Assembly (NCBI GenBank): GCA_001786765.1
Contig: MFTH01000016.1
Location: 21,666 to 85,665 of the forward strand
Direction: 5' to 3'
DNA length: 64,000 bases
Source of the DNA: Candidatus Nomurabacteria bacterium RIFCSPHIGHO2_01_FULL_37_25
Lineage (GTDB): Bacteria; Patescibacteriota; Minisyncoccia; Phycocordibacterales; UBA9973
Below, in pieces: positions 5,719 through 53,767 of this stretch (positions within the stretch are counted from its first letter, which is position 1; each line of letters begins with the position of its first letter). The notes under the pieces were generated by a model that was given only the letters and a program-made list of their open reading frames with translations, made no database searches and had not been told where the DNA came from. Position numbers and translations under genes: made by a program.

Positions 5719-5862
5719 AAATTACGAAACTTGTCGAAGGCATGTCTTTTTTAGGGGGTTTCGAGGCTGTCGAGCGCTGAACTTCAAGATTTTTCAAGGC
5801 TAATTTTTATTTGAAAAATCCGTACCCTAGAAAAAGACATGCCCAGAAAGAGTTTTGTAATT
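5719..5862. repeat. family-1 structured repeat, copy A (long form: outer stem + inner stem + core 5754-5827, core forward)
   Basis: Outer inverted repeat AAATTACGAAACT / AGTTTTGTAATT. Inner inverted repeat GGCATGTCTTTTTTAGGG / CCCTAGAAAAAGACATGCC. Core is GGGGGTTTCGAGGCTGTCGAGCGCTGAACTTCAAGATTTTTCAAGG...TTGAAAAATCCGTACCC. Confidence 0.85.
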
Positions 5863-5875
5863 CAAAGTAATATAA

Positions 5876-7675: not shown

Positions 7676-7710
7676 CCTTCGGTCGCCGAAGCGACCTCAT
7701 AAATTACAAA

Positions 7711-7819
7711 ACTCATAAAATATCAATTTTTTCCGGTACGGATTTTTTGAAGGTTAAAAAATCCTGAAGTTTGCTCGCCGTCGCTCGCAAAACCCCTGCA
7801 AAAATTATATTTTATGAGT
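7711..7819. repeat. family-1 structured repeat, copy B (core 7734-7796, reverse orientation, divergent 5' half)
   Basis: Flanking inverted repeat ACTCATAAAATAT / ATATTTTATGAGT. Core is CGGTACGGATTTTTTGAAGGTTAAAAAATCCTGAAGTTTGCTCGCCGTCGCTCGCAAAACCCC. Confidence 0.8.
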
Positions 7820-7822
7820 TTC

Positions 7823-8848
7823 CTATCTTGCGTGTATATAAAGATATATATCCTCGAGAGCGCGGACGGCGTCGCCAGCGGCGATGTTGTTTTGATGATA
7901 TAGGACATTAGTGCAGTCTCCTGCCGCCCAGATACCGGGAATTTCTGTTTTTTGGGACCAAGCGTCAATTTTGATTCTTCCATATTCATCAAGTGGCACA
8001 AGGCTTTTAGCAAAATCAGTGTTTGGGATTTGTCCGATTTCCACAAAAATACCAGAGACTTTTAATTCTTTCTCTCCGCCTGCTTCCGACTCGGGAGGGC
8101 GAGCAGGTTTATAAATTATTCCTTCTACAAATTTATCGCCTTGCACTTCTAAGATTTCAATATTTTTTATTAATTTCATTTTTGGATTTTTCAAAACTTT
8201 TTCCACCGTTATTTCATCTGCGCGAAGAGTGTTGCTACGATTGAGAAGAGTTACAGATTTGCAATATGCCAGAAGTTGCGCGGCTGTTTCAAAGCCGGCA
8301 TTGCCTCCGCCGATTACAGCTACATCCATTTCCGAAAAAAGAGGTCCATCGCAAGAAGCGCAATAGGTGAGACCTTTGTGTTCAAGTTTGTCTGCATTTT
8401 TAGCAACAAGCTTCCTGCGTCCGCTTCCGCTCGTTATTAAAATTGTTTTAGTTAAAAACTCTTCACCTGATTCTATTTTGACAGAAAAATTCCCATCCTT
8501 TTTTTCTTTGGTGGAGGCGTTGCCTCCGCCATTTGACGGAAGCAAGGCTTCCGTAATGCTGATTACTTTTTCCCCTTCTTTTACTAGCAGGGTAGAACCT
8601 AAGTTTTCAGACTCTTTTATATTTTCCGTGCCTATGGCATTCGCCATTACATGTTTTTTTAAATTTTCCGCTAATTCATTACCAGAGATCAAGGTGGTGC
8701 CTATCCAATTGTAAATCTGTTCAGATACGATAGATTGTCCGCCCCATTCGGTGGTGATAAGAATAGTTCGGAGTCTTTTTCTAGAAGCATACACAGCCGC
8801 CGCCGTGCCCGCTGGCCCGCCTCCAATTATTATTAAGTCGTATGTCAT
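7823..8848 (-). CDS. trxB: thioredoxin-disulfide reductase with ~20-aa in-frame insertion
   Basis: MTYDLIIIGGGPAGTAAAVYA, CASC redox motif, AVIGGGNAG. The ORF track starts at GTG 8863. The ATG at 8848 gives the canonical N-terminus. Confidence 0.85.
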   Translation of the reverse strand: MTYDLIIIGGGPAGTAAAVYASRKRLRTILITTEWGGQSIVSEQIYNWIGTTLISGNELAENLKKHVMANAIGTENIKESENLGSTLLVKEGEKVISITEALLPSNGGGNASTKEKKDGNFSVKIESGEEFLTKTILITSGSGRRKLVAKNADKLEHKGLTYCASCDGPLFSEMDVAVIGGGNAGFETAAQLLAYCKSVTLLNRSNTLRADEITVEKVLKNPKMKLIKNIEILEVQGDKFVEGIIYKPARPPESEAGGEKELKVSGIFVEIGQIPNTDFAKSLVPLDEYGRIKIDAWSQKTEIPGIWAAGDCTNVLYHQNNIAAGDAVRALEDIYLYIHAR

Positions 8849-8878
8849 AATTTCATTATACACTATACATGGAATTTT

Positions 8879-8974
8879 AAAAATGTACTTTTGCAGGGGT
8901 TTCGAGGCTGTCGAGCCGAGAACTTCAGGATTTTTTAAGCTTCAAAAAATCCGTACCGGAAAAAGTACATTTTT
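8879..8974. repeat. family-1 structured repeat, copy C (core 8896-8958, forward). It fills the ftsZ-stop / trxB-start spacer.
   Basis: AAAAATGTACTTTT-gc-GGGGTTTCGAGGCTGTCGAGCCGAGAACTTCAGGATTTTTTAAGCTTCAAAAAATCCGTACCG-g-AAAAAGTACATTTTT. Confidence 0.85.
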
Positions 8975-8992
8975 AAAATTCTAGCCTGCTTT

Positions 8993-10183: not shown

Positions 10184-10200
10184 AATTTTTATTACATTAA

Positions 10201-10237
10201 TCCCGACCGTCTGTCGGGATCCCGACTATGGTCGGGA
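10201..10237. repeat. tandem CCCGAC/GTCGGG hairpin pair (ftsA-ftsZ spacer)
   Basis: TCCCGAC-cgtct-GTCGGGA then TCCCGAC-tatg-GTCGGGA. Confidence 0.8.
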
Positions 10238-12655: not shown

Positions 12656-14119
12656 ATGTCTTCAATTGATGAAATTAGAGATATTAGAATAAAAAAACTT
12701 GAGCTCTTAAAGAGTAGAGGTTTGAACCCGTATCCAGCGGAGTCAAACAGAGAGATTTCTTTGAAAGAGGCTATAGAGAATTTTGATAATCTAGAAAAAA
12801 CAAAAGATATGAAATGGATAGCAGGACGAGTTATGTCTATCCGCGGGCAAGGCGCGATTGTTTTTATAACACTAAATGACGGCACCGCTTCTTTTCAGGG
12901 TTTGTTTAAAAAAGATATTCTGGGTGATGATAAATTTAGTTTTTTTAACGAAGTAGTTGATATTGGTGATTTTATAGAAATCAAAGGAAGTTTTTTTGCA
13001 ACCCAAAGAAAAGAGAAAACACTAGAAGTCAAAGATTGGCGTATGCTCTCTAAAAGTTTGCGACCACTGCCAGAAAAGTGGCATGGACTCGTAGATGTGG
13101 AGGAAAGATTTAGAAAAAGGTATCTAGATATTTTAATGAATCCTGAATTAAAAGAACTTTTTGAAAAGAAGGCGAAGTTTTGGGAGGCGACTCGTAATTT
13201 TTTGAAAAAAGAAAATTTCCTAGAAGTTGAAACACCAACGCTTGAAATCACGACCGGTGGAGCAGAAGCCCGACCATTTAAAACTCATCATAATGATTTT
13301 GATATAGATGTTTATATGAGAATATCGGTGGGTGAGCTCTGGCAAAAGAGATTACTCGCGGCTGGTTTTCCTAGAGTTTTTGAAATTGGTAGAGTTTATA
13401 GAAACGAGGGATCAAGTCCGGAACATACCCAAGAATTTACCAGTATGGAATTTTACGCAGGGTATATGGATTACAAACAGGGAATTGAATTTACAGAAAA
13501 AATGATTAAAGAAGTTGTCATGGAAAGTTTTGGCACACTTGTTTTTGAAATACATGGACACAAAATTGATTTATCTAAAAAATGGGAACATATTCTTTAT
13601 GTTGATACAATAAAAGAAAACTCAGGTATTGATGTGCTATCGGTTACAGAAAAAGAAATGATGAAAAAACTAGATGAGCTTGGAGTGAAATATGAAGGCA
13701 CAAATAAAGAGCGTTTGACTGACTCGCTCTGGAAATATTGCCGAAAGCAAATAAAAGGACCGGTGTGGCTTATTGATGTGCCAAAACTTGTTTCTCCACT
13801 TTCAAAAATAAAACCAGAAAACCCACTACTCACTGAACGCGCGCAGCTCATCTTGGCGGGAGCGGAAATGACTAATGGATTTTCAGAATTAAATGATCCG
13901 ATAGATCAGAAGGAACGTTTTGAAGTGCAAAAGAAATTAATTGAAGGGGGAGATAAAGAAGCAATGATGCCAGATGATGAATTTGTGGAAATGTTGGAAC
14001 ACGGCATGCCTCCAGCTTTTGGTTTCGCTTATGGGGAGAGACTCTTTGCTTTTTTGGTAGATAAACCGCTCCGCGAGACGCAATTTTTTCCATTAATGAG
14101 ACCTTTAAATAAAGATTAA
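12656..14119 (+). CDS. lysS: lysyl-tRNA synthetase (class II)
   Basis: 487 aa. N-terminal OB fold. Class II motifs FRNEGSSPEHTQEFT..., GGAEARPF. Confidence 0.9.
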   Translation: MSSIDEIRDIRIKKLELLKSRGLNPYPAESNREISLKEAIENFDNLEKTKDMKWIAGRVMSIRGQGAIVFITLNDGTASFQGLFKKDILGDDKFSFFNEVVDIGDFIEIKGSFFATQRKEKTLEVKDWRMLSKSLRPLPEKWHGLVDVEERFRKRYLDILMNPELKELFEKKAKFWEATRNFLKKENFLEVETPTLEITTGGAEARPFKTHHNDFDIDVYMRISVGELWQKRLLAAGFPRVFEIGRVYRNEGSSPEHTQEFTSMEFYAGYMDYKQGIEFTEKMIKEVVMESFGTLVFEIHGHKIDLSKKWEHILYVDTIKENSGIDVLSVTEKEMMKKLDELGVKYEGTNKERLTDSLWKYCRKQIKGPVWLIDVPKLVSPLSKIKPENPLLTERAQLILAGAEMTNGFSELNDPIDQKERFEVQKKLIEGGDKEAMMPDDEFVEMLEHGMPPAFGFAYGERLFAFLVDKPLRETQFFPLMRPLNKD

Positions 14120-14767: not shown

Positions 14768-14779
14768 TTAATAAAGTAA

Positions 14780-14820
14780 TCCCGACGTAAAGTCGGGACC
14801 CCGACCTAAAAGCGTCGGGG
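14780..14820. repeat. tandem CCCGAC/GTCGGG hairpin pair upstream of mraZ
   Basis: TCCCGAC-gtaaa-GTCGGGA then CCCCGAC-ctaaaagc-GTCGGGG. Confidence 0.8.
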
Positions 14821-14834
14821 TTTAGAAAAAAAAT

Positions 14835-15272
14835 ATGCTTATCGGAGAATATATACATACGATTGATGAAAAAAACAGAGTTTCAATACCGGTAAAGTTT
14901 CGCAAAGAGCTCGGTAAGAAAATTATTATCACACCTGGACTTGGTCAATGTTTGTTCATTTTTACAATTAAAGAATGGGAAAAGGTAAGCAAGAAACTTT
15001 CTGATTCGGATTCTGATTTATCTTTTTTGAAAGCTGATCAAAGAAGTTTTAACAGATATATGTTTGGAAGAGCGGTGGAAATAGAGTTTGATTCGATCGG
15101 CCGAATATTAATTCCTGATTTTCTGAAAGATAGAATCGGACTTGCGAATTCCGCGGCAATTGTCGGAGTAAAAGACAGAGTGGAAGTATGGAGTGAGAAA
15201 GCATGGTCGGAGCAAAAAGAAATCGTGGAAAAGCAGGCGGAACAGTTGGCGGAGAAGTTGGGAAGTTCCTAA
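14835..15272 (+). CDS. mraZ: transcriptional regulator MraZ
   Basis: MLIGEYIHTIDEKNRVSIPVKFRKEL... A duplicated SpoVT/AbrB-like fold. First gene of the dcw block. Confidence 0.85.
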   Translation: MLIGEYIHTIDEKNRVSIPVKFRKELGKKIIITPGLGQCLFIFTIKEWEKVSKKLSDSDSDLSFLKADQRSFNRYMFGRAVEIEFDSIGRILIPDFLKDRIGLANSAAIVGVKDRVEVWSEKAWSEQKEIVEKQAEQLAEKLGSS

Positions 15273-15276
15273 AAAC

Positions 15277-15362
15277 ATAACTTTTTTCGGTACGAATTTT
15301 TCGAAGCTTGAAAAATTCTGAAGTTCTCGGCTCGTCAGCCTCGAAACCCCTGCAAAAGTTAT
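15277..15362. repeat. family-1 structured repeat, copy D (core 15288-15350, reverse)
   Basis: ATAACTTTT...CGGTACGAATTTTTCGAAGCTTGAAAAATTCTGAAGTTCTCGGCTCGTCAGCCTCGAAACCCC...AAAAGTTAT. Confidence 0.85.
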
Positions 15363-15384
15363 TTTTTAGAAACTTCAAAAATAT

Positions 15385-16329
15385 ATGCACAGGACAGTTC
15401 TTTTAAATGAAGTTATAGATGGGTTGAATTTAGGCTCCGGTTCCATCGTCGTAGATGCAACATTTGGCGGCGGAGGGCATAGTCTGGAGATTTGTAAAAG
15501 ATATCCGAGTGTGAGGATAATTGCCTTAGATCAAGATCAAAGTGCTCTCGAAAAAGCCAAAAGTAAATTCAAAGATTCAAATTGTGATGTTACTTTTATA
15601 AATGCGAATTTTAGAGACCTAGATAGGGTGAACTTGGGAAATTTAAGCGTCGTGGGTTCCCTGTCCTCTGGTCTCCGAGGGCGAAGGCGCAAAAATTTTC
15701 CAAGTTCACCCGTAGACGGAATCATTTTTGATTTAGGTTTGAGTTCTGACCAGTTGGAGAATTCTGGACGAGGATTTTCTTTTCAAAAAGATGAACCACT
15801 TTTAATGACTATGAAAGAGAATCCAACTTCCGGAGATGTTACAGCGAAAGATGTTGTAAACACTTGGGGAGAAGATAGTTTAGCCGATATTATTTACGGT
15901 TATGGTGAAGAAAAGCAAGCTCGCAGAATCGCTAAAAGAATAGTGGAATTTAGGAAAAAACAGGAAATTAAAACCACCTTTGATTTGGTAAAAGTAATAG
16001 AAGAGGCGATTCCAGCCAAGTTTCGTAAAGGCAAAATCCATTATGCCACTAAAACTTTTCAGGCAATAAGGATAGCGGTAAATGATGAGTTGGGAGCGCT
16101 TGCCGAGGGTTTGGATAAAGGTTTTAAGTTATTGAAGGTAGGAGGGAGGATGTCGGTGATTTCTTTCCATAGTTTAGAGGACAGGATAGTAAAGAGATTT
16201 TTTAAGAAAAAAGCGGAAGAAAATTTAGCAAAGTTAATTAATAAAAAACCCATTATTGCTAAATTAGAAGAAATAAAAAATAATCCGAGGTCAAGAAGCG
16301 CAAAATTAAGAATTTTATCCCGACGCTAA
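15385..16329 (+). CDS. rsmH: 16S rRNA (cytosine1402-N4)-methyltransferase RsmH, carrying an in-frame ~80-nt repeat insertion
   Basis: VVDATFGGGGHS, VDGIIFDLGLSSDQL, SFHSLEDRIVK. Extra segment NLSVVGSLSSGLRGRRRKNFP relative to RsmH homologues. Confidence 0.9.
   Translation: MHRTVLLNEVIDGLNLGSGSIVVDATFGGGGHSLEICKRYPSVRIIALDQDQSALEKAKSKFKDSNCDVTFINANFRDLDRVNLGNLSVVGSLSSGLRGRRRKNFPSSPVDGIIFDLGLSSDQLENSGRGFSFQKDEPLLMTMKENPTSGDVTAKDVVNTWGEDSLADIIYGYGEEKQARRIAKRIVEFRKKQEIKTTFDLVKVIEEAIPAKFRKGKIHYATKTFQAIRIAVNDELGALAEGLDKGFKLLKVGGRMSVISFHSLEDRIVKRFFKKKAEENLAKLINKKPIIAKLEEIKNNPRSRSAKLRILSRR
15626..15711. repeat. family-2 hairpin element inserted in-frame in rsmH
   Basis: GGGTGAACTTGG-gAAATTTAAGCGTCGTGGGTTCCCTGTCCTCTGGTCTCCGAGGGCGAAGGCGCAAAAATTTT-CCAAGTTCACCC. 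The core is shared with 24905-24970. Confidence 0.85.
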
Positions 16330-16365
16330 TTCGGGACCCCGACACAAATTTACTTGGCGTCGGGG
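16318..16365. repeat. tandem CCCGAC/GTCGGG-type hairpin pair overlapping the rsmH stop codon
   Basis: TCCCGA-cgctaat-TCGGGA then CCCCGAC-acaaatttacttggc-GTCGGGG. Confidence 0.75.
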
Positions 16366-18644: not shown

Positions 18645-19993
18645 TGAAGACAATTCTTAAAAAAATAATAGCTTACATACTACAGATAGAATCACGCCTG
18701 GTAATTTTTAGATATAAACCGAAGATTGTCGCTATTACCGGCTCGGTCGGCAAGACTTCCACTAAGGATGCAGTTTATGCAGTTCTCTCCGGAATGTCGC
18801 ATGTTCGCAAAAGTGAGAAAAGCTATAATAGCGAAATAGGATTGCCACTGACTATTTTAGGTATTCCAAATGGATGGAATAATCCTCTGGTGTGGGTTCA
18901 AAATATTTGGAAAGGTCTTTGGCTTTTTCTTAGTCCTTTTGGGCCTCACAAATATCCCAAATGGCTTGTCCTCGAAGTCGGTGTAGGCAAGCCGGGTGAT
19001 ATGCGTCGCACAGCTTCTTGGTTTAAAACTGATGCGGTTATCATCACTGCCATCAGCGAGACTCCGGCTCATATTGAATTTTTTAATTCCCGAAAAGACC
19101 TTATAAAAGAAAAAAGCGAGCTCATAAAAACTTTAAAACCAGATGGCATTTTAATATTAAATGCTGATGACGAGGACGTGCTCTCTATGAGAAACCAAAG
19201 TAAGACTAAAGATAAGCATCGCGCTATAACTTATGGATTTACAGAAGGCGCTGATGTTTTGGCATCTCAAGATAGTATTTTTTATGGTGATTTAGGTGAA
19301 CCTCGAGGAATAACTTTTAGAATAGATGAGAGGGGGAATAGTCTACCTGTAATTACAGAAGGTGTATTTGGCAGAAATCATGTCTATGCTTCTCTCGGAG
19401 CTTTAGCTTTTTCTTCAATTTTGAAATTTAATATGCTGGATGCGGTGAATTCGCTAAAAAATTATGATGTTGCGCCAGGGCGTATGCGATTGCTAAATGG
19501 TATTAACGGAACTTTGATTATTGATGATACTTATAACTCTTCTCCTTTTGCTTGTGAATCCGCGCTTAAAACTTTAGGAGAAGTAAAATGTTTGGGGAGG
19601 AAAATTGCTATTTTGGGCGATATGCTTGAATTAGGTAAATACACAGAAGAAGCTCATAAAAATATCGGCAAGATAGCTAAAGAAAATTGTGATGTTTTGG
19701 TAGTGGTGGGTCATAGAGCGCAAGCTATAAAGTCTGGTGCTCTGGAAGCAGGGATGAATAATGCGAATATTTTTGAATTTTTAGATTCATATCAAGCTCA
19801 CGAATTTGTAAAAACTTTTGTGCGGGCAGGCCCGCCTGCTCCTGACGAAGGAGGGCGGGCAGGGGACTTGGTGCTCGTAAAAGGTTCTCAAGGTATGCGT
19901 ATGGAGCGTGTGGTAGAGGCGATACTTTTTGATAAAGAAAATAAAGAAAAACTACTGGTTCGTCAAGACAAAGAATGGTTGAAGAAAAAATAA
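18644..19993 (+). CDS. murF: UDP-N-acetylmuramoyl-tripeptide--D-alanyl-D-alanine ligase with a GC-rich hairpin insertion near the C-terminus
   Basis: ITGSVGKTSTK P-loop, Mur ligase domains. Extra RAGPPAPDEGGRAG before LVLVKGSQG. Confidence 0.85.
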   Translation: MKTILKKIIAYILQIESRLVIFRYKPKIVAITGSVGKTSTKDAVYAVLSGMSHVRKSEKSYNSEIGLPLTILGIPNGWNNPLVWVQNIWKGLWLFLSPFGPHKYPKWLVLEVGVGKPGDMRRTASWFKTDAVIITAISETPAHIEFFNSRKDLIKEKSELIKTLKPDGILILNADDEDVLSMRNQSKTKDKHRAITYGFTEGADVLASQDSIFYGDLGEPRGITFRIDERGNSLPVITEGVFGRNHVYASLGALAFSSILKFNMLDAVNSLKNYDVAPGRMRLLNGINGTLIIDDTYNSSPFACESALKTLGEVKCLGRKIAILGDMLELGKYTEEAHKNIGKIAKENCDVLVVVGHRAQAIKSGALEAGMNNANIFEFLDSYQAHEFVKTFVRAGPPAPDEGGRAGDLVLVKGSQGMRMERVVEAILFDKENKEKLLVRQDKEWLKKK

Positions 19994-20084
19994 TTGATTA
20001 AAATCGTAGTAGCTTTTAGGTCAAAAAGAAAGGGCCTGCGAAATCTCAAATATATGATAATCACGCAGGCCCAGATGTGGTTGA

Positions 20085-20153
20085 CTACCGCTTACACAAG
20101 CGCTGCCCAATGGCAGCGAACATCACCGCCAAGATGACGGGGGCCGCCGACAT
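20085..20153 (-). CDS. hypothetical 22-aa hydrophobic peptide (type I toxin-like composition)
   Basis: MSAAPVILAVMFAAIGQRLCKR. AAGGAGGA sits 23 nt upstream, which is non-optimal spacing. Confidence 0.15.
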   Translation of the reverse strand: MSAAPVILAVMFAAIGQRLCKR

Positions 20154-20182
20154 TTGGGCGGTCTGTGCCTCTGTGTCCTCCT

Positions 20183-20323
20183 TTAAATTGACTCCATTAA
20201 TTTTTTTTCACCGTGTGGTGATACACACGGTGGTGGATCGTGCGTTGCCCAAAAACGCAACGCTATTGATCCCAACAACATCCCCCCCACACAACAAAAC
20301 AAAACAACTAGAAATCTTTGCAT
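20183..20323 (-). CDS. hypothetical 46-aa hydrophobic peptide with canonical SD (GGAGGA, 8 nt spacer) in a GC-rich islet
   Basis: MQRFLVVLFCCVGGMLLGSIALRFWATHDPPPCVSPHGEKKLMESI. The local GC is far above the genome background. It overlaps the + ORF 20077..20325 from the track. Confidence 0.25.
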   Translation of the reverse strand: MQRFLVVLFCCVGGMLLGSIALRFWATHDPPPCVSPHGEKKLMESI

Positions 20324-20530
20324 AATAACTCTCCTCCCTATCTCAACCTCTCACTTTCGGTGCTGAGGCCATCCTTTTACGGATTTTATAGAGTGATTCC
20401 AAAAAAAGATATATCATGTTAAAATGTTATTGTCAAGGGTTCAAGTAATAGTTTTGTTACCTTTGTGACCTATTGTATGACGAATTAGAACTTGCCTTGA
20501 CCAGGTCAAGGCGCTATCAGGGCGTTATAA

Positions 20531-24893: not shown

Positions 24894-24981
24894 ACTATGA
24901 GAATGAAAAATTTAAGCGTCGTGGGTTCCCTGTCCTTATGACCTCGAGGGCGAAGGCGCAAGAATTTTTTATTCTCATAGT
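24894..24981. repeat. family-2 hairpin element, intergenic copy (between the MYG1 gene and obg)
   Basis: ACTATGAGAAT-gaaAAATTTAAGCGTCGTGGGTTCCCTGTCCTTATGACCTCGAGGGCGAAGGCGCAAGAATTTTtt-ATTCTCATAGT. The 11-bp flanking inverted repeat differs from the rsmH copy. Confidence 0.85.
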
Positions 24982-33182: not shown

Positions 33183-36100
33183 ATGCCAAAAGAAATGAGT
33201 GATGCAACACGTCCGAAAAAATATTTTAGTAGATATAAAAAACCTCTCGTTCCTTTTCCAAATTTAATTGAAGCTCAACTCAAGAGTTTCAAATGGCTAG
33301 TGGAACAGGGAATTAGCGAAGTCTTCAAAGAATTTTCTCCAATCAGTGATTACTCTACAAAAAAGTTTCAACTTGAATTCACTTCTTTTTCACTTAGTGA
33401 ATGTAAATACGACGAGAATCACGCTAAAATAAATAAACTTTCATATCAAGGACTTCTAAAGACGCGGGTAAAATTAACAAATAAAATTTTAGGTACTGTA
33501 AAGGAACAGGAGATTTTTATGTCTGAACTTCCTTTGATGACTTCTCACGGAACTTTTATTATAAATGGTGTAGAGCGTGTTATCGTTCCGCAGCTTGCTC
33601 GAAGTTTTGGAGTTTTCTTTACCGAGTCCGAGATCAAGGGTAATAAATATTTTGGCGCTAAAATTATTCCAGCTCGTGGAGTTTGGATTGAGATAGAGTC
33701 CGAGGCAGATGGAGCGATTTACATAAGGATAGATAAAAAAAGAAAATTTCCCGCAACAGCATTATTGCGAATTATGGGTTATGAGAATAACGACAACATA
33801 CTGAAGGCTTTTTCTGGAAATCCTATTTTCACAAAAACGATAAAAACTTGTTTAGAAAAAGATGGAGTGAAGAGTCTAAATGATTCATACATTGAGATTT
33901 ATAAACGCTTGAGAGATGGTGATATGGCAACAGCTGATAATGCCAAAGAGTTTATTAATTCTTTATTTACCGCTGAGCGATATGATCTTTCTCCGGTTGG
34001 TCGTTTCAGATTTAACAAACGTTTTGATAAACCTATGGACGATACGGCGCTAGCTCGCAGGACTATTTCCAAAGAGGATTTGGTAACGGTGATTATGAAT
34101 ATTATTCTTTTAAACAATACTCCTTTTGCTAAGAGTGATGACATAGATCATTTAGGTCAGAGACGTGTGCGATTTGTCGGTGAAACACTCCAACAGAAAG
34201 TACGCACCGGGATGATGCAAATCAAAAGAAATATTCAAGACAGAATGTCTATCATAGATGTTGATACCGCAATGCCTATAGCTATTATCAATCAACGCCC
34301 ACTCCAAGCTCGCATCAAAGAATTTTTCACAACCAATCAACTTTCGCAATTCATGGCGCAAGAGAATGTGCTTTATGAAATAGAACATTTACGCACACTT
34401 TCAGCGCTTGGGCCCGGAGGATTGACACGCGAGCGCGCAGGCTTGGAAGTTCGTGATGTGCATCCATCGCATTATGGGAGAGTTTGTCCTATTCATACTC
34501 CTGAAGGTCCAAACATCGGACTTATTTTACACCTTTCTACATATGCAAAGATAAATGAATTTGGGATCATTGAAACTCCATATATCAAAGTTAAAAATGG
34601 CAAGTTAACTGATGAAGTAATTTATCTAAACGCGCTTGAAGAAGAAAAATATAATATTGCGCATGCGGGAACGCCTTATGACTTGAAAGGTAACATAACT
34701 GAAGAAAAAGTAGAAGCTAGGATTAAGACAGAACCAGGCACGATTTCTCGCGATGAGGTTGATTTTATTGATGTTGCTCCAAACCAGGCTTTTTCTGTTG
34801 CAACTTCCATGGTTCCGTTCTTGGAACACAACAATGCTAATCGCGCTTTAATGGGAAGTAATATGCAGAAACAAGCTGTGCCTTGCGTATTGCCAGAAGC
34901 GCCATTAGTCGCTACAGGTATTGAAGAATTAGCAGCGCAAGATTCAGGGAGGTTAATTATAGCGGAGGAAGACGGAGTCATTTCCTATTTGGATGCAAAA
35001 AAGATAGTAATAGAGGGGAAATCTCCTGCCCGCAATGCTTCGCATAGCGATGCAGGCGGAGGAAAGCTTTCTAATAAAACTTACAACCTTGTAAATTTTA
35101 TGAGAAATAATAATTTTGCAGTATTTCATCAGCGTCCACTGGTTAACATTGGCGATAAAATAAAGAAAGGCGATATATTAGCAGATACTAGCAGTACCGT
35201 GGGTGGACAAATTTCGCTGGGACAGAATGTTTTCGTGGCTTTTTTGTCTTGGTCTGGAGCAACTTACGAAGACGCTATAATTGTTTCTGAACGTCTTGTA
35301 AAGAAAAGTAAATTTACATCAGTTTATGTTGAAGAGTTTACTTGCGTAGTTCGTGATACTAAGCTTGGACCTGAAATTACCACTCGTGACATACCAAATG
35401 TTGGAGAGCTCAAGCTCAAAGATTTAGACGAAGATGGTATTGTCCGTATCGGAGCGGAAGTTAGAGAAAATGATATTTTAGTTGGTAAAATTACGCCAAA
35501 AGGCGAGACGGAACTTACTCCAGAGGAGCGGTTGCTACGTTCAATCTTTGCTGAAAAAGCGCGTGATGTTAAAGATACGTCACTACGAGTGGAACATGGT
35601 AAGCGTGGACGCATCATTGGTGTAAAGATTTTTTCTCGCGATTTAGGACATACCCTTGAAGCGGGAATTATTAAAAAAATTATAATTGAAATCGCGCAAA
35701 TCAGAAATATTTCAGTTGGGGACAAACTTTCTGGACGACATGGAAACAAAGGAGTCATTTCAGTAATTCTGCCAGAAGAAGACATGCCCTATATGGCAGA
35801 TGGTACACCAATCGATATTATTCTTTCGCCACTTGGTGTTCCTTCTCGTATGAACTTGGGACAAATTTTTGAAATGCATCTAGGCATGGCGGCTAACAGT
35901 CTTGGTTATCAGGCGATTGTACCCCCATTTTTAAGCGCTAAATATGATGAAATTAAAGAGGAATTAGTAAAAGCCGGACTACCAGAGTCTGGTAAATTAA
36001 AACTTTTTGATGGACGTACCGGAGAAGCTTTTGAGCAAGATGTTGCAGTCGGTTATATGTATATGTTGAAGCTTCATCATATGGTGGAAGACAAAATTCA

Positions 36101-41183: not shown

Positions 41184-42958
41184 TTGATCAAATAAAATCA
41201 AAAATAGATATACTCTCACTAGTTTCATCTTATATAAAACTAGATAAAGCTGGAGCAAGTTGGAAGGGTAAGTGTCCGTTTCATAATGAAAAAACACCGT
41301 CGTTTTTTGTATCGCCGGCGAGGGAAAGTTATTATTGTTTTGGTTGCGGAGCGTCTGGAGACATATTTACTTTTGTGGAAGAATTTGAAGGGCTTGATTT
41401 TAAGGGCGCGCTGAAACTTTTAGCCGATAAAGCTGGAGTGACGCTTGAAGTTTACAGCAAAGAGATGCAAGAAGCCAAAGAGAATAAGAGTGAAAAAGAA
41501 AAATTATATACAGCGATAGAAGAAGCTACAAAGTTTTTTGAAAATAATTTAAAAGAAAACAAGAATGCGCAAGAATATTTAAAATCACGTGGATTAACAG
41601 AAAAAAGTATCAAGGATTTTAGAATTGGTTTTGCTCTTCTTGATTGGCATAGACTTTATGATTATCTAAAATCTAAGAATTTTTCTGATAATGAAATAGA
41701 GAGAGCAGGATTAGCCAAAAAATCAGACAATGATGCAGAAAAGTTGAATAAAAGAATGTATGATAGATTTCGTGGAAGAATTATGTTCCCAATCTCTGAT
41801 TCAAGTGGTCGCGTTATCGCTTTTTCTGGCAGAATCCTGGTTGACGATGGCCCGCTTCGCCATGGCTCCAGCGAGGCGAGTAAGTCCGCCAAGTATTTAA
41901 ATAGTCCGGAGACTTTAATATTCAACAAATCTTCTGTGCTTTTTGGCATAGATAAAGCAAAAGATGCAATTCGTAAAAACAACTTTTCTATTTTGGTTGA
42001 GGGGCAAATGGATTTAATTTTATCACACCAGGCAGGATATAAAAATACAGTTGCGACATCTGGCACAGCTTTATCGGATTCGACAATTTCTAAAGAGAAT
42101 GTTATTTCAAATTTAGGTCTTATTCGCCGTCTTTCTTCAAACATTGTGCTTGCTTTTGATGCTGATAGCGCTGGAGCCAATGCTACCATTAAAGCGGGCA
42201 AAATAGCTCTTTCACTGGGGATGGATGTAAAAGTGGTGGATATGCCGGATGGAATCGATCCTGCGGATTTGATTACGCAAAATAATTCTATTGCGGGATC
42301 GGATGCATGGCGTCTTGCGATAAAAAATTCCAAACATATCATTGAATTTCTTTTAGATAAAGTTTTGAAAAATTTCAAAAATGATACTCGTAAGATAGGT
42401 ATGGAAATAAAAGAAAAAATATTGCCATTTGTCAATGTATTAGAAAGTTCAATAGAAAAAATGTATTTTATTAAAAAAATAAGCGACGCCTCATCTATTC
42501 CTCAAAATGCTCTGCAAGATGATTTAAAGAAAATTGAGCAAGAATTAAAATATGAAACAGAAGAAACAAAAACTGCAAAAGAAAATGTAGAAAAAAAGTT
42601 GAGAAAAGATCCGATTGAAAGGAGACTCTTTGGGATAGCTTTTTGGCAAGAGAGTTTAAAAAGTAGAACCATAGAACCAGAGTTGATTTTTACAAAATTA
42701 CATAAGGCAAAAGAGGCTTTTCTAGATATGAAAGAAGATTTGATTTATGAAGCTGAAATATTTTATTTAAATAGTGAGAATTTGCAAAAAGATGTAAATG
42801 AAATGTTGCTTTCCATTGAAGAAGAGTATCTAAATGAAGAGCTTGTCAAAACAATGATAGATTTCAGAAACCTTAAAGATAAAAAATTGGAGGTGGAAAT
42901 TTTAAAAAAGATCGATAAAATAAATAAAAGAAAAGAAGAAATTAAAAATAGTCGTTAA
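41165..42958 (+). CDS. dnaG: DNA primase
   Basis: Zinc ribbon CPFHNEKTPSFFVSPARESYYCFGCGASGD. TOPRIM domain. The ORF-track start GTG is at 41153; the ATG at 41165 (MKISNGVDQIK) is preferred. Confidence 0.85.
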   Translation: MKISNGVDQIKSKIDILSLVSSYIKLDKAGASWKGKCPFHNEKTPSFFVSPARESYYCFGCGASGDIFTFVEEFEGLDFKGALKLLADKAGVTLEVYSKEMQEAKENKSEKEKLYTAIEEATKFFENNLKENKNAQEYLKSRGLTEKSIKDFRIGFALLDWHRLYDYLKSKNFSDNEIERAGLAKKSDNDAEKLNKRMYDRFRGRIMFPISDSSGRVIAFSGRILVDDGPLRHGSSEASKSAKYLNSPETLIFNKSSVLFGIDKAKDAIRKNNFSILVEGQMDLILSHQAGYKNTVATSGTALSDSTISKENVISNLGLIRRLSSNIVLAFDADSAGANATIKAGKIALSLGMDVKVVDMPDGIDPADLITQNNSIAGSDAWRLAIKNSKHIIEFLLDKVLKNFKNDTRKIGMEIKEKILPFVNVLESSIEKMYFIKKISDASSIPQNALQDDLKKIEQELKYETEETKTAKENVEKKLRKDPIERRLFGIAFWQESLKSRTIEPELIFTKLHKAKEAFLDMKEDLIYEAEIFYLNSENLQKDVNEMLLSIEEEYLNEELVKTMIDFRNLKDKKLEVEILKKIDKINKRKEEIKNSR

Positions 42959-45039: not shown

Positions 45040-45112
45040 TTATTTATTTTTTAATTGTTAATATCTTTATTATAGCATCTTTTTGTATTATGCTATAATA
45101 GCTATAGCAACT

Positions 45113-45251
45113 TTGAATTACGAAACTCTTTCTAGGCATGTCTTTTTCTAGGGTACGGATTTTTTTAAGTTTAAAAAATCCTGAAGTTCTCGGCTCGACA
45201 GCCTCGAAACCCCCTAAAAAAGACATGCCTTCGACGAGTTTCGTAATTCAA
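45113..45251. repeat. family-1 structured repeat, copy E (long form, core 45151-45224 reverse)
   Basis: Outer inverted repeat TTGAATTACGAAACTC / GAGTTTCGTAATTCAA. Inner inverted repeat CTAGGCATGTCTTTTTCTAGG / CCTAAAAAAGACATGCC. Both stems are shared with copy A. Confidence 0.85.
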
Positions 45252-45329
45252 AGTTATAAAATTTAATTTGCTTGTTTGGTCGTTCAAGCAAAGTATTGTA
45301 TTTATTAAATATTTTTAAAGTATAAACAT

Positions 45330-48396: not shown

Positions 48397-48523
48397 AATT
48401 ATGAAACTCAAAAATATAACTTTATGCAGGGGTTTCGAGGCTGACGAGCCGAGAACTTCAAGATTTTTTAAGCTTCAAAAAATCTGTACCGGAAGAAAGT
48501 TGATATTTTTGAGTTTCATAATT
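48397..48523. repeat. family-1 structured repeat, copy F (core 48429-48492 forward) inside a 21-bp perfect outer stem
   Basis: AATTATGAAACTCAAAAATAT...GGGGTTTCGAGGCTGACGAGCCGAGAACTTCAAGATTTTTTAAGCTTCAAAAAATCTGTACCGG...ATATTTTTGAGTTTCATAATT. Confidence 0.85.
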
Positions 48524-48535
48524 CATAAATATTAT

Positions 48536-52947: not shown

Positions 52948-53767
52948 AAAAACAAAAAGAAAGAAATTTTTTAGTGTTATATTTATTCTTATTTTTTTAT
53001 TTATTTTTATTTATTTTAGGTCGGGTATTTTTTATGGGTTGTCTTACGCGAGTCATATCATTTTTCGTCCAGTTTTAGTTTTAGGAAATAATATTGGTGA
53101 TAAATTTGTTAATATTAAATCGTATTTTATTTCTAAAAATTCTCTCTATCTGCAAAATCAAAATTTACAATCTGAAATAACTGAAAATAAAATCAAAATT
53201 TCAAATTACAATTCTATTTTAGCTGAAAATATTAATCTCAAGGAGATTTTAGGGCGCCTGCCTGCGCAGACAGGGGAAAATGGAAAAACAGTTACGACTT
53301 TAGCTGTTATTTTATCTAAACCAAACCAAAGTTTTTATAATACGCTTGTTATTGATGCAGGTATAAATGAGGATATAAAAGTAGGAAATATAGTTTTTGC
53401 CCTAGGTCATAGCCAGACGGGCGAGGTATTAAGCAATGTGCCCATTGGACGCATAGTTGAAACTTATTTAAATTCTTCTAAGGTCATTTTGTTTTCAAGT
53501 CCGGGCGAGAAAACACAGGTGATAATATCAGGCAAAGATGTTTTTTCGGAGATTATCGGGCGAGGAGGAGGAGGTAATTTTGAAATGATAATGCCTCAAG
53601 ATTTCACATTAGCAAAAGGAGATCAAGTGGTTTTACCCGGTATTGTTCCTTATGTTTTAGGTATTGTAGAAACGATAATTTCCGACCCGCGTGATTCTTC
53701 TGTCAAAGCGTTACTTGTAAGTCCAGTAAATATTCAGGAGTTGAAGTTTGTAGGGGTAAAGTCATAA
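52916..53767 (+). CDS. mreC: rod shape-determining protein MreC
   Basis: TM anchor, coiled coil, beta-barrel domain with GDQVVLPG. Confidence 0.7.
   Translation: MGIKMSYLLDKKTKRKKFFSVIFILIFLFIFIYFRSGIFYGLSYASHIIFRPVLVLGNNIGDKFVNIKSYFISKNSLYLQNQNLQSEITENKIKISNYNSILAENINLKEILGRLPAQTGENGKTVTTLAVILSKPNQSFYNTLVIDAGINEDIKVGNIVFALGHSQTGEVLSNVPIGRIVETYLNSSKVILFSSPGEKTQVIISGKDVFSEIIGRGGGGNFEMIMPQDFTLAKGDQVVLPGIVPYVLGIVETIISDPRDSSVKALLVSPVNIQELKFVGVKS

Follow-up and report, generated by a model that had tools for sequence, protein, structure and literature searches.

Transposases of the IS200/IS605 family act by "peel and paste", in which a hairpin is recognised and no target-site duplication is left, and small hairpin repeats of AT-rich mitochondrial genomes (the GC clusters, the double-hairpin elements and the 'byp' elements) are found also in coding regions. 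The REPIN, the dispersed form of the repetitive extragenic palindromic (REP) sequence, is defined by two inverted units with a short spacer between them (PMC3337134, PMC3116915). REPs with the GTAG/CGTC tag have been described inside genes as well, by Di Nocera et al., in Opitutus terrae, in Rickettsia conorii (the Rickettsia palindromic elements, RPEs, RPE-4 and RPE-6) and in Thioalkalivibrio (PMC3733652); these intragenic REPs are often dimers encoding 20-30 amino acids, and many of them lie in replication/repair genes (PMC3733652). The RPEs are, in the part of PMC10969869 which cites Ogata 2000 and 2002, the classic in-frame palindromic insertions, and in Nematomorpha perfect inverted repeats are translated within genes (PMC6649704). 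The present work concerns a 45-nt insertion, built of two hairpins, inside the gene of a TrxR/AhpF-like protein (trxB in the initial annotation of this DNA), located on a stretch of 64,000 nt from contig MFTH01000016.1 of Candidatus Nomurabacteria bacterium RIFCSPHIGHO2_01_FULL_37_25 (hereafter the window), a bacterium of the candidate phyla radiation (CPR).

Based on the comparison of this locus with its orthologues and with metagenome stretches that carry related palindromes, we consider it probable that the pair of hairpins makes up a single element, mobile but non-autonomous and of the REP/REPIN type, of which each hairpin is one unit, in a genome which also holds a gene resembling those of the REP-associated tyrosine transposases (RAYTs).

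The insertion in the TrxR/AhpF-like gene

The host gene is an open reading frame (ORF) of 341 amino acids on the minus strand (7823..8848, with the ATG at 8848 and the stop at 7823), encoding a low-molecular-weight flavoprotein disulfide reductase with the motifs GGGPAG, GGGNAG and CASC (the redox motif). The best PDB matches of the protein are AhpF and TrxR (E 2e-49), and against NCBIfam it reaches 253 bits for AhpF (cut-off 503) and 244 bits for TRX_reduct (the TIGR01292 equivalog; cut-off 343). Given that both scores stay under the curated cut-offs, we name it TrxR/AhpF-like; the FAD/NAD(P)H and CxxC motifs expected from the label trxB are present, but the scores make the broader name the safer one, and trxB is kept below as a short form only. 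A protein of Candidatus Nomurabacteria RIFCSPHIGHO2_01_FULL_37_2x, A2641_02655, has exactly the same sequence (100% identity). The insert-bearing coding sequence (CDS) is identical at every base in six independently assembled contigs and occurs on at least 24 contigs, and the insert is therefore no assembly artefact.

The initial annotation had reported two perfect hairpins inside this CDS, and both are found on the plus strand where it had placed them: the perfect inverted repeat GGAGGC-gtt-GCCTCC at 8513-8527 and the perfect inverted repeat ACGGAAGC-aag-GCTTCCGT at 8536-8554, the minus-strand translation across the two being ...ITEALLPSNGGGNASTKEKKDGN... (or ...VISITEALLPSNGGGNASTKEKKDGNFSV...). 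The hairpin at 8513-8527 extends to 8510-8530 (GGtGGAGGC/GCCTCCgCC), with a 9-bp stem that contains one T.G pair. Instead of two separate features, as originally proposed, we read them as two units of one inserted element, a REPIN-like doublet on the minus strand (8510..8554; CDS nt 295-339) of 45 nt or 15 codons, which encodes T99-T113 (TEALLPSNGGGNAST). In the sense direction, the 5' unit (unit 1, 8536..8554) is ACGGAAGC-CTT-GCTTCCGT with a perfect 8-bp stem, the spacer (8531..8535) has the 5 nt CAAAT, and the 3' unit (unit 2, 8510..8530) is GGCGGAGGC-AAC-GCCTCCACC, a diverged inverted copy; the peptide that spans the junctions of the insert reads ...VISITEALLPSNGGGNASTK.... An insertion over the hairpins, put at about 20 residues in the initial annotation, is present, but its length is exactly 45 nt, that is 15 codons (99-113). 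The host region is about 28 residues longer than in the AhpF/TrxR structures, because a second variable segment (residues 70-85) also adds to the difference.

Folding of the sense-strand RNA (8505-8560) gives -25.3 kcal/mol, a value reached by none of 200 dinucleotide-shuffled sequences, which give -13.0 +/- 2.5 kcal/mol (z -4.9; 0/200). Hairpins as strong and GC-rich as these number three in the CDSs of the whole window, two of them being the trxB pair, and when the synonymous codons of trxB were shuffled 0.2 hairpins were expected against the two observed, a count of two being reached in 1/60 shuffles. The local GC content, which had been described as well above that of the gene, is indeed raised (0.52 in 8500-8559; gene 0.42, window 0.36), but it is not above that of the conserved GGGPAG or GGGNAG motif regions of the same gene. 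In the AlphaFold2 (AF2) model, with a mean predicted local distance difference test score (pLDDT) of 68.8, residues 101-120 form a coil between the strands 95-100 and 121-125, and pLDDT falls below 50 at residues 104-117; the model indicates that the insert would lengthen the tip of a surface beta-hairpin in the FAD domain.

The length differences among 37 aligned close homologues (73-85% identity, 308-341 amino acids) cluster at a few sites, the largest of which is that of the trxB insert. This site is empty in most of 41 genome-derived orthologues, including the closest one (P0002, locus L081), which is 85% identical, has the synteny ftsA-ftsZ-trxB in common with the window and does not contain the insert. 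There, the empty site reads ATA followed directly by GAAAAAAATGG (in a longer reading, ATA followed by GAAAAAAATGGTGAAAAT), while the filled site of the window reads ATT, the 45 nt (ACGGAAGCCTTGCTTCCGTCAAATGGCGGAGGCAACGCCTCCACC) and then AAAGAAAAAAAGG (continuing as AAAGAAAAAAAGGATGGGAAT). The alignment of the filled with this empty site delimits the insert to window positions 8510-8554. At least four unrelated peptide types are found at this TrxR loop, namely EALLP..GSKAS, RTVL..RTVL (RTVLKEV..RTVLEN), DVGRP..GRPTS and PKAL..SALG, each of them encoded by a near-perfect hairpin with a stem of 14-19 bp, the peptide halves being the translations of the two arms. Residues conserved throughout the lineage, over hairpins lost by synonymous change, had been named as the pattern that would speak against an insertion; the opposite is seen, since the orthologues are mostly empty and the peptides at the site are unrelated and hairpin-coded. 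In a neighbour-joining tree built on the insert-free columns, the insert types are scattered and the EALL type of the window is sister to an empty allele. As judged from these alignments, the insert is not a lineage-specific protein feature.

Dispersed copies and a RAYT-like gene in the same genome

Intact relatives of the trxB element have the form ACGGAAGCCTTGCTTCCGC-loop-GCGGAAGCAAGGCTTCCGT, that is, two inverted 19-nt units, each of them a mini-hairpin in its own right (GGAAGC-CTT-GCTTCC in one, GGAAGC-AAG-GCTTCC in the other). In the window copy unit 1 is intact, and the pairing of unit 2 with unit 1 is down to 13/19. Two stem A-T pairs of unit 2 are now G-C, through changes on both sides which kept the local hairpin, and unit 2 is further changed at one more stem position and in the loop. 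The resulting pattern, GGAGGC-N3-GCCTCC, was found nowhere else in 1.36 Mb of related loci; locus L026 holds GAGGCC/GGCCTC, a related variant of the family. By its sequence, the trxB copy is best described as a partly decayed member of the EALL family and, we infer, an old one.

The pattern GAAGCCTTGCTTYY-N2-12-RRAAGCAAGGCTTC matched at least 120 metagenome stretches, with at least five matches on each of several single long contigs. The unique copies, 97 in number, are palindromes of 34-54 nt, with sub-families set by the loop and the outer stem. For the frame analysis we used the 84 copies located away from contig ends: an open frame of at least 25 amino acids on both sides spans 74 of these (88%), versus 79% at random positions, and with at least 60 amino acids on both sides the count is 58/84. 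The spanned copies use all three frames (EALL 43, SLAS 22, KPCF 9), and the family core is stop-free in all six. The host ORFs include those of LeuRS, PolA, GyrB, a PilB-type ATPase, PurH, MurD/E, IscS-like desulfurases, PriA, GAPDH, the ATP synthase gamma subunit (atpG), transketolase and others; in TopA several orthologues carry a copy at one site, and in LigA two sites are occupied. Seven host ORFs match called public proteins exactly, and both of those with organism names belong to Nomurabacteria. The GC content of the host contigs ranges from 30 to 58%, and 'GC-rich' therefore holds just relative to the AT-rich genome of the window. The recurrent class of hairpin insertions tolerated in frame, which the initial annotation had suspected, is borne out in this form, the same DNA element being found in many unrelated housekeeping genes. 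Predicted reading frames thus place the family mostly in frame inside housekeeping genes of Nomurabacteria/Paceibacteria.

Across the family, the arms are consistent in all four positions in 56 copies, in the long-range pairs alone in 30 and in the local pairs alone in one. The local mini-hairpin was rejected as the main conserved feature, given that the long-range palindrome dominates (30 long-range-only copies versus one local-only copy); the window copy is atypical, in that it keeps the local stems alone. A DNA-uptake sequence was also considered and rejected, since the core is rare (unselected trxB loci, about 0.45 Mb in all, gave three matches, and the window gave one). A search of 2.9 million viral contigs, and of the records of phages and plasmids, gave no copies of the family, and Rfam gave no match at the element, whether at gathering or at E-value thresholds.

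Candidate proteins acting on these units were located by tblastn with IS608 TnpA and E. coli RAYT sequences; the matches were weak (E 0.09-0.4) and no evidence by themselves, but pointed to RAYT-like ORFs, which were then checked independently. Such ORFs, of about 230 amino acids, are present in eight loci. In seven aligned proteins the motifs YH.Y.RG, PNHFH (the HUH motif) and AYIH.NP (with the Tyr) are invariant or nearly so, and all seven match the NCBIfam family NF047646, REP-associated tyrosine transposase (best E 4.4e-10). Homologues number at least 7942, some of them named RayT or transposase by their source, and include A2641_00380 of the window's own genome.

A2641_00380 (locus L209, 3001-3696) belongs to the same assembly as the window. 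It is flanked by two units (ACGGAAGCCTTGCTTCCGT, at L209 2956-2974 and 3729-3747) which are 19/19 identical to trxB 8536-8554, and it contains an inverted unit at L209 3280-3298. In L216 and L217 there is one unit 16-21 nt upstream of the RAYT-like gene, one inside it and one at its 3' end, and the RAYT-like genes of L165 and L122 are likewise flanked by family units. Additionally, the outer sub-family bases agree, within each genome, between the units that flank the RAYT-like gene and the in-frame copies (ACGG in the window's genome, TTGCGG in L165). The internal inverted unit occupies a common position in the gene of four genomes (L209 3280-3298, L216 10273-10293, L217 10272-10294 and L165 8303-8323), where it is translated in frame, for example as KTEARLPF or NAEALLPQ; its conservation there may reflect a cis-regulatory or autoregulatory site. 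The neighbourhood is also kept in L209, L216 and L217 (a CTP_transf_like gene, an HtrA-like protease, the RAYT-like gene, an MFS transporter and RNase J), which suggests vertical inheritance of a single-copy, domesticated RAYT-like gene.

Origin of the insertion and competing explanations

No target-site duplication was found, there being no k-mer duplication beyond expectation at any offset; the sole excess lies at k=2 and offsets 0-1 (30 and 21 matches, versus 6.3 expected) and is attributed to the palindromic CG dinucleotide inside the element. The units contain no GTAG/CGTC tag either, the flank consensus at -4..-1 being T/C/C/G, mirrored at +1..+4. A miniature inverted-repeat transposable element (MITE), with terminal inverted repeats and a direct target-site duplication, was rejected because the duplication was not found, and a classical GTAG/CGTC REP because the tag was not found. 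With neither of the two present, the search turned to hairpin-specific single-strand transposition.

In the mechanism that we favour, the RAYT-like protein, or a relative of it, would recognise the hairpin in single-stranded DNA and move or copy the doublets, as the IS200/IS605 TnpA and the RAYTs do, by a single-stranded route that would leave no target-site duplication. Selection would purge the copies that break the frame or the fold, and those surviving in genes would have a multiple-of-three length, contain no stop and be located in tolerant surface loops. The trxB element would be read through, adding 15 residues at the tip of the FAD-domain beta-hairpin, away from the CASC motif. Its unit 2 would have drifted while paired substitutions saved its own stem; either intra-element template switching or selection on the hairpin could have maintained the complementarity of the arms during this drift. 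Most probably it is selfish or neutral DNA, from which no host benefit is to be expected and whose side effect would be limited to a stable hairpin in mRNA or single-stranded DNA; nothing that we saw suggests a use of the 15 residues to the enzyme. For the Nomurabacteria/Paceibacteria at large, we put forward, tentatively and as a possibility rather than an expectation, that a divergent, syntenic and apparently domesticated RAYT-like gene makes up, with its units, a REP system whose copies are for the most part translated within essential proteins and not extragenic, and that several families hit the same loops again, the arms are kept complementary and the unit inside the gene is autoregulatory.

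Several observations weigh against the mobile-element reading of the trxB insert. Besides the missing tag, the RAYT-like proteins score under the curated thresholds (33.6 bits versus 80 for NF047646, and 20.6 versus 23 for the Pfam family Y1_Tnp, PF01797), and a profile search against the PDB gave a weak match, with E ~0.1 to the ISDra2 TnpA at the HUH motif; these sub-threshold scores and this weak match are the reason for the term 'RAYT-like'. The link between this gene and the dispersed copies is one of association and sequence identity. The 64-kb window contains one copy of the family only, and when synonymous codons are shuffled in all its CDSs the three hairpins compare with 1.15 +/- 1.03 expected, which is not significant. 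In the codon-shuffle null proposed with the initial annotation, trxB therefore stands out by itself, but the count over all CDSs does not, and the window on its own lends modest statistical support. Furthermore, several hairpin families fill the same loop in close relatives, a repeated occupation which could also reflect allele exchange or target preference, and the compensated substitutions of unit 2 could mean selection on the local hairpin and not neutral decay.

The alternative that survives best, although we regard it as unlikely, is an RNA-level role in cis, be it a ribosome pause, an mRNA processing/stability signal or a bypass like that of the mitochondrial 'byps' of Magnusiomyces. It would account for the very stable sense hairpin (-25 kcal/mol, z -4.9), and the conservation of the unit at one position inside the RAYT-like gene of four genomes hints at a cis role there; however, the open frame kept across 88% of the copies, with all three frames in use, fits read-through, Rfam holds no match, the insert is patchy among close relatives, and the copies lie at unrelated positions in unrelated genes. 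Programmed bypass of the byp or T4 gene 60 type is judged unlikely, given that the frame is kept in 88% of the copies and that the window copy, with its 45 nt, is stop-free.

We find it improbable that the hairpins were formed in place, with no mobile element, by template switching during replication (quasi-palindrome formation or correction). A 14-19-nt core shared by more than 100 unrelated loci cannot arise in this way, and such a process cannot explain why the trxB unit matches those flanking the RAYT-like gene at 19/19 positions, even if it would agree with the missing target-site duplication, with the two compensated substitutions in trxB unit 2 and with arms that are perfectly complementary within a copy though their sequences vary between copies. 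Once an element has been inserted, however, template switching may be what preserves the pairing of its arms.

A lineage-specific, functionally selected loop of the TrxR-like enzyme, with the hairpins as a by-product of its codons, is very improbable. The length varies at this place among TrxR/AhpF structures, and the insert keeps the frame, contains no stop and does not differ between the assemblies of the population; yet it is missing from the closest orthologue and from most others, close relatives have unrelated hairpin-coded peptides at the same site, the same DNA is found in unrelated proteins in three reading frames, and the AF2 pLDDT of the insert is below 50. Finally, chance, or a sequencing or assembly artefact such as a chimeric palindrome, is hardly credible, since, in spite of the non-significant hairpin count over all window CDSs (3 versus 1.15), the insert is in frame, six independent assemblies agree on its sequence, at least 24 contigs carry it, many projects yielded copies of the family and the fold has a z of -4.9.

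Other hairpin families and comparison with known systems

The initial annotation had grouped the trxB hairpins with cases in rsmH, tsaD and murF. The rsmH case is indeed a copy of a dispersed repeat; in tsaD and murF there are GC islands which form hairpins. In rsmH, a 61-nt element (15639-15699) is inserted in frame, translated as SVVGSLSSGLRGRRRK, and a second copy, located between genes at 24908-24968, shares 89% identity with it. The two copies have their own, unrelated 11-nt inverted flanks (GGTGAACTTGG/CCAAGTTCACC versus ACTATGAGAAT/ATTCTCATAGT); an inverted duplication of the target flank was dropped as an explanation, since the RsmH orthologues show neither flank as native. The RsmH site is variable among orthologues and holds several insert families. 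The tsaD island (1617-1636) is CCTGCCTG-ccgg-CAGGCAGG, with a fold z of -2.1, and is similar to a ACCTGCCTAAGT/ACTTAGGCAGGT hairpin beside the RAYT-like gene in L175; the murF island (19811-19889) encodes RAGPPAPDEGGRAG, with a fold z of -2.6. For the GC islands in dnaG (41825-41895) and mreC (53239-53287) the fold is not significant.

In rpoB, a 35-nt element (CCTGCCCGCAATGCTTCGCATAGCGATGCAGGCGG, translated PARNASHSDAGG) is located at 35025-35059, in a variable RpoB loop, and recurs with 35/35 identity in L108, within a metagenome gene unrelated to rpoB, and in L206, within the trxB of a different genome; L136 holds two diverged copies of it. The TrxR/AhpF-like gene of the window carries a second GC-rich insert, PARPPESEAGG (8075..8107, minus strand), at the site of the PARNASHSDAGG element in other TrxR orthologues. 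The two have ends in common (CCTGC.CGC...GCAGGCGG), and the fold of the insert at 8075-8107 is no better than that of shuffles.

Outside genes, a hairpin element of about 100-150 nt is present in six copies (5720-5868, 7699-7825, 8872-8981, 15267-15380, 45109-45266 and 48399-48526), with a common core of about 70 nt, TTTTGCAGGGGTTTCGAGGCTGTCGAGCCGAGAACTTCAGGATTTTTTAAGCTTCAAAAAATCCGTACCGGAAAAA, and outer stems which vary between copies and are complementary within a copy. Two of these copies flank trxB in inverted orientation. In the ftsZ-trxB spacer the window has this intergenic hairpin element where the closest relative (L081, 3591-3956) holds a 121-aa 23S_rRNA_IVP/bAvd-like gene. A short double-hairpin repeat, (T/A)ATCCCGAC...GTCGGGA(T/C)CCCGAC, possibly terminator-like, has three intergenic copies (10189-10231, 14768-14810 and 16306-16348). 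The gap of about 540 nt from murF to the next gene (19994-20530) contains five GC-rich hairpins, with no Rfam, tRNA or tmRNA match, and could be an unrecognised structured RNA or a cluster of palindromic elements. Among the relatives, the LeuRS ORF of L096 has a hairpin element (13003-13037) and a tandem duplicated 23-aa insert (VDPVRERSPQGDRSTASGRAFSN, twice), and a DPVRSRP...GRPASNG peptide like this LeuRS duplicate occurs in the RsmH orthologues P0188 and P0200; this resemblance points to a further dispersed coding element.

Taken alone, the trxB locus is a case of selfish DNA with nothing unusual about it, yet it leads to a phenomenon that is widespread in CPR genomes and apparently undescribed in the literature searched. 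In that search, made in an incomplete library, nothing was found that joins RAYT, REPIN, RPE, MITE or palindromic elements with CPR/Patescibacteria. The reading proposed here offers a concrete mechanism for the short, patchy, GC-rich insertions in CPR housekeeping proteins, which can mislead alignments, phylogenies and structure predictions of CPR genomes. It would extend REP/RAYT biology to a phylum for which the literature searched holds no earlier description, and to copies that are mostly translated, as are the Rickettsia RPEs. Each of the in-frame copies has its empty-site orthologue in a close relative, and the two together give before/after pairs for studying REPIN insertion, the upkeep of the arms and the tolerance of loops to 11-18 residues. 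If the wider proposal of a mostly translated REP system is true, hairpin transposition would be a main source of the varying lengths of housekeeping proteins in CPR bacteria, and time series of CPR metagenomes would offer a natural system for following REPIN gain and loss under a reading-frame filter.

Of the systems compared, the coding palindromes of Nematomorpha differ in that their repeats encode conserved protein regions and are not insertions, and in being organellar and without a RAYT. The mitochondrial GC clusters and byps are also organellar and have no RAYT; moreover, the byps are bypassed instead of translated, and are under no multiple-of-three limit. With the IS200/IS605 TnpA, the RAYT-like protein has in common the HUH motif and the conserved Tyr, as well as a weak profile match to the ISDra2 TnpA; the homology is distant (E ~0.1 versus the PDB), and, unlike IS200/IS605 elements, the dispersed CPR elements are gene-less and about 45 nt long.

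The intragenic REPs and RPEs come closer. We know of no description, for either of them, of one loop being repeatedly occupied by several families. They resemble the CPR element as in-frame palindromes in unrelated housekeeping genes, often dimers and compatible with protein function (PMC3733652 and, in the part dealing with RPEs, PMC10969869). Size and host set the CPR element apart, also from the RPE families (RPE-1 to RPE-10): the RPE-1 type has about 100-150 bp and the intragenic REP dimers of O. terrae and R. conorii encode 20-30 amino acids, compared with 34-54 nt and 11-18 amino acids here, and they occur in Rickettsia, Opitutus and Thioalkalivibrio instead of CPR bacteria.

The closest likeness is to the REP/REPIN-RAYT systems. 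As in these, a short palindromic unit (here of 19 nt, with an 8-bp stem) is present in many copies, with at least 120 doublet loci; the two units of a doublet are inverted, with a short spacer, although in the window copy their pairing has decayed to 13/19; no target-site duplication is found; and a gene for a putative HUH/Tyr (Y1) protein is flanked by cognate units in the same genome (a REPtron). This gene is syntenic and apparently single-copy at that place, as described for RAYTs (PMC5581495). Unlike these systems, the CPR element carries no GTAG/CGTC tag (PMC3733652), its copies are mostly intragenic (~88%) and presumably translated, whereas classical REPs are mainly extragenic, and the CPR clade of RAYT-like proteins is divergent, longer (~230 amino acids) and sub-threshold in its RAYT/Y1_Tnp scores; further differences are the unit conserved within the RAYT-like gene itself and the host, a member of the CPR. 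In-frame REPs and the RPEs of Rickettsia were already known; what is new is the family, the phylum and the mostly intragenic distribution.

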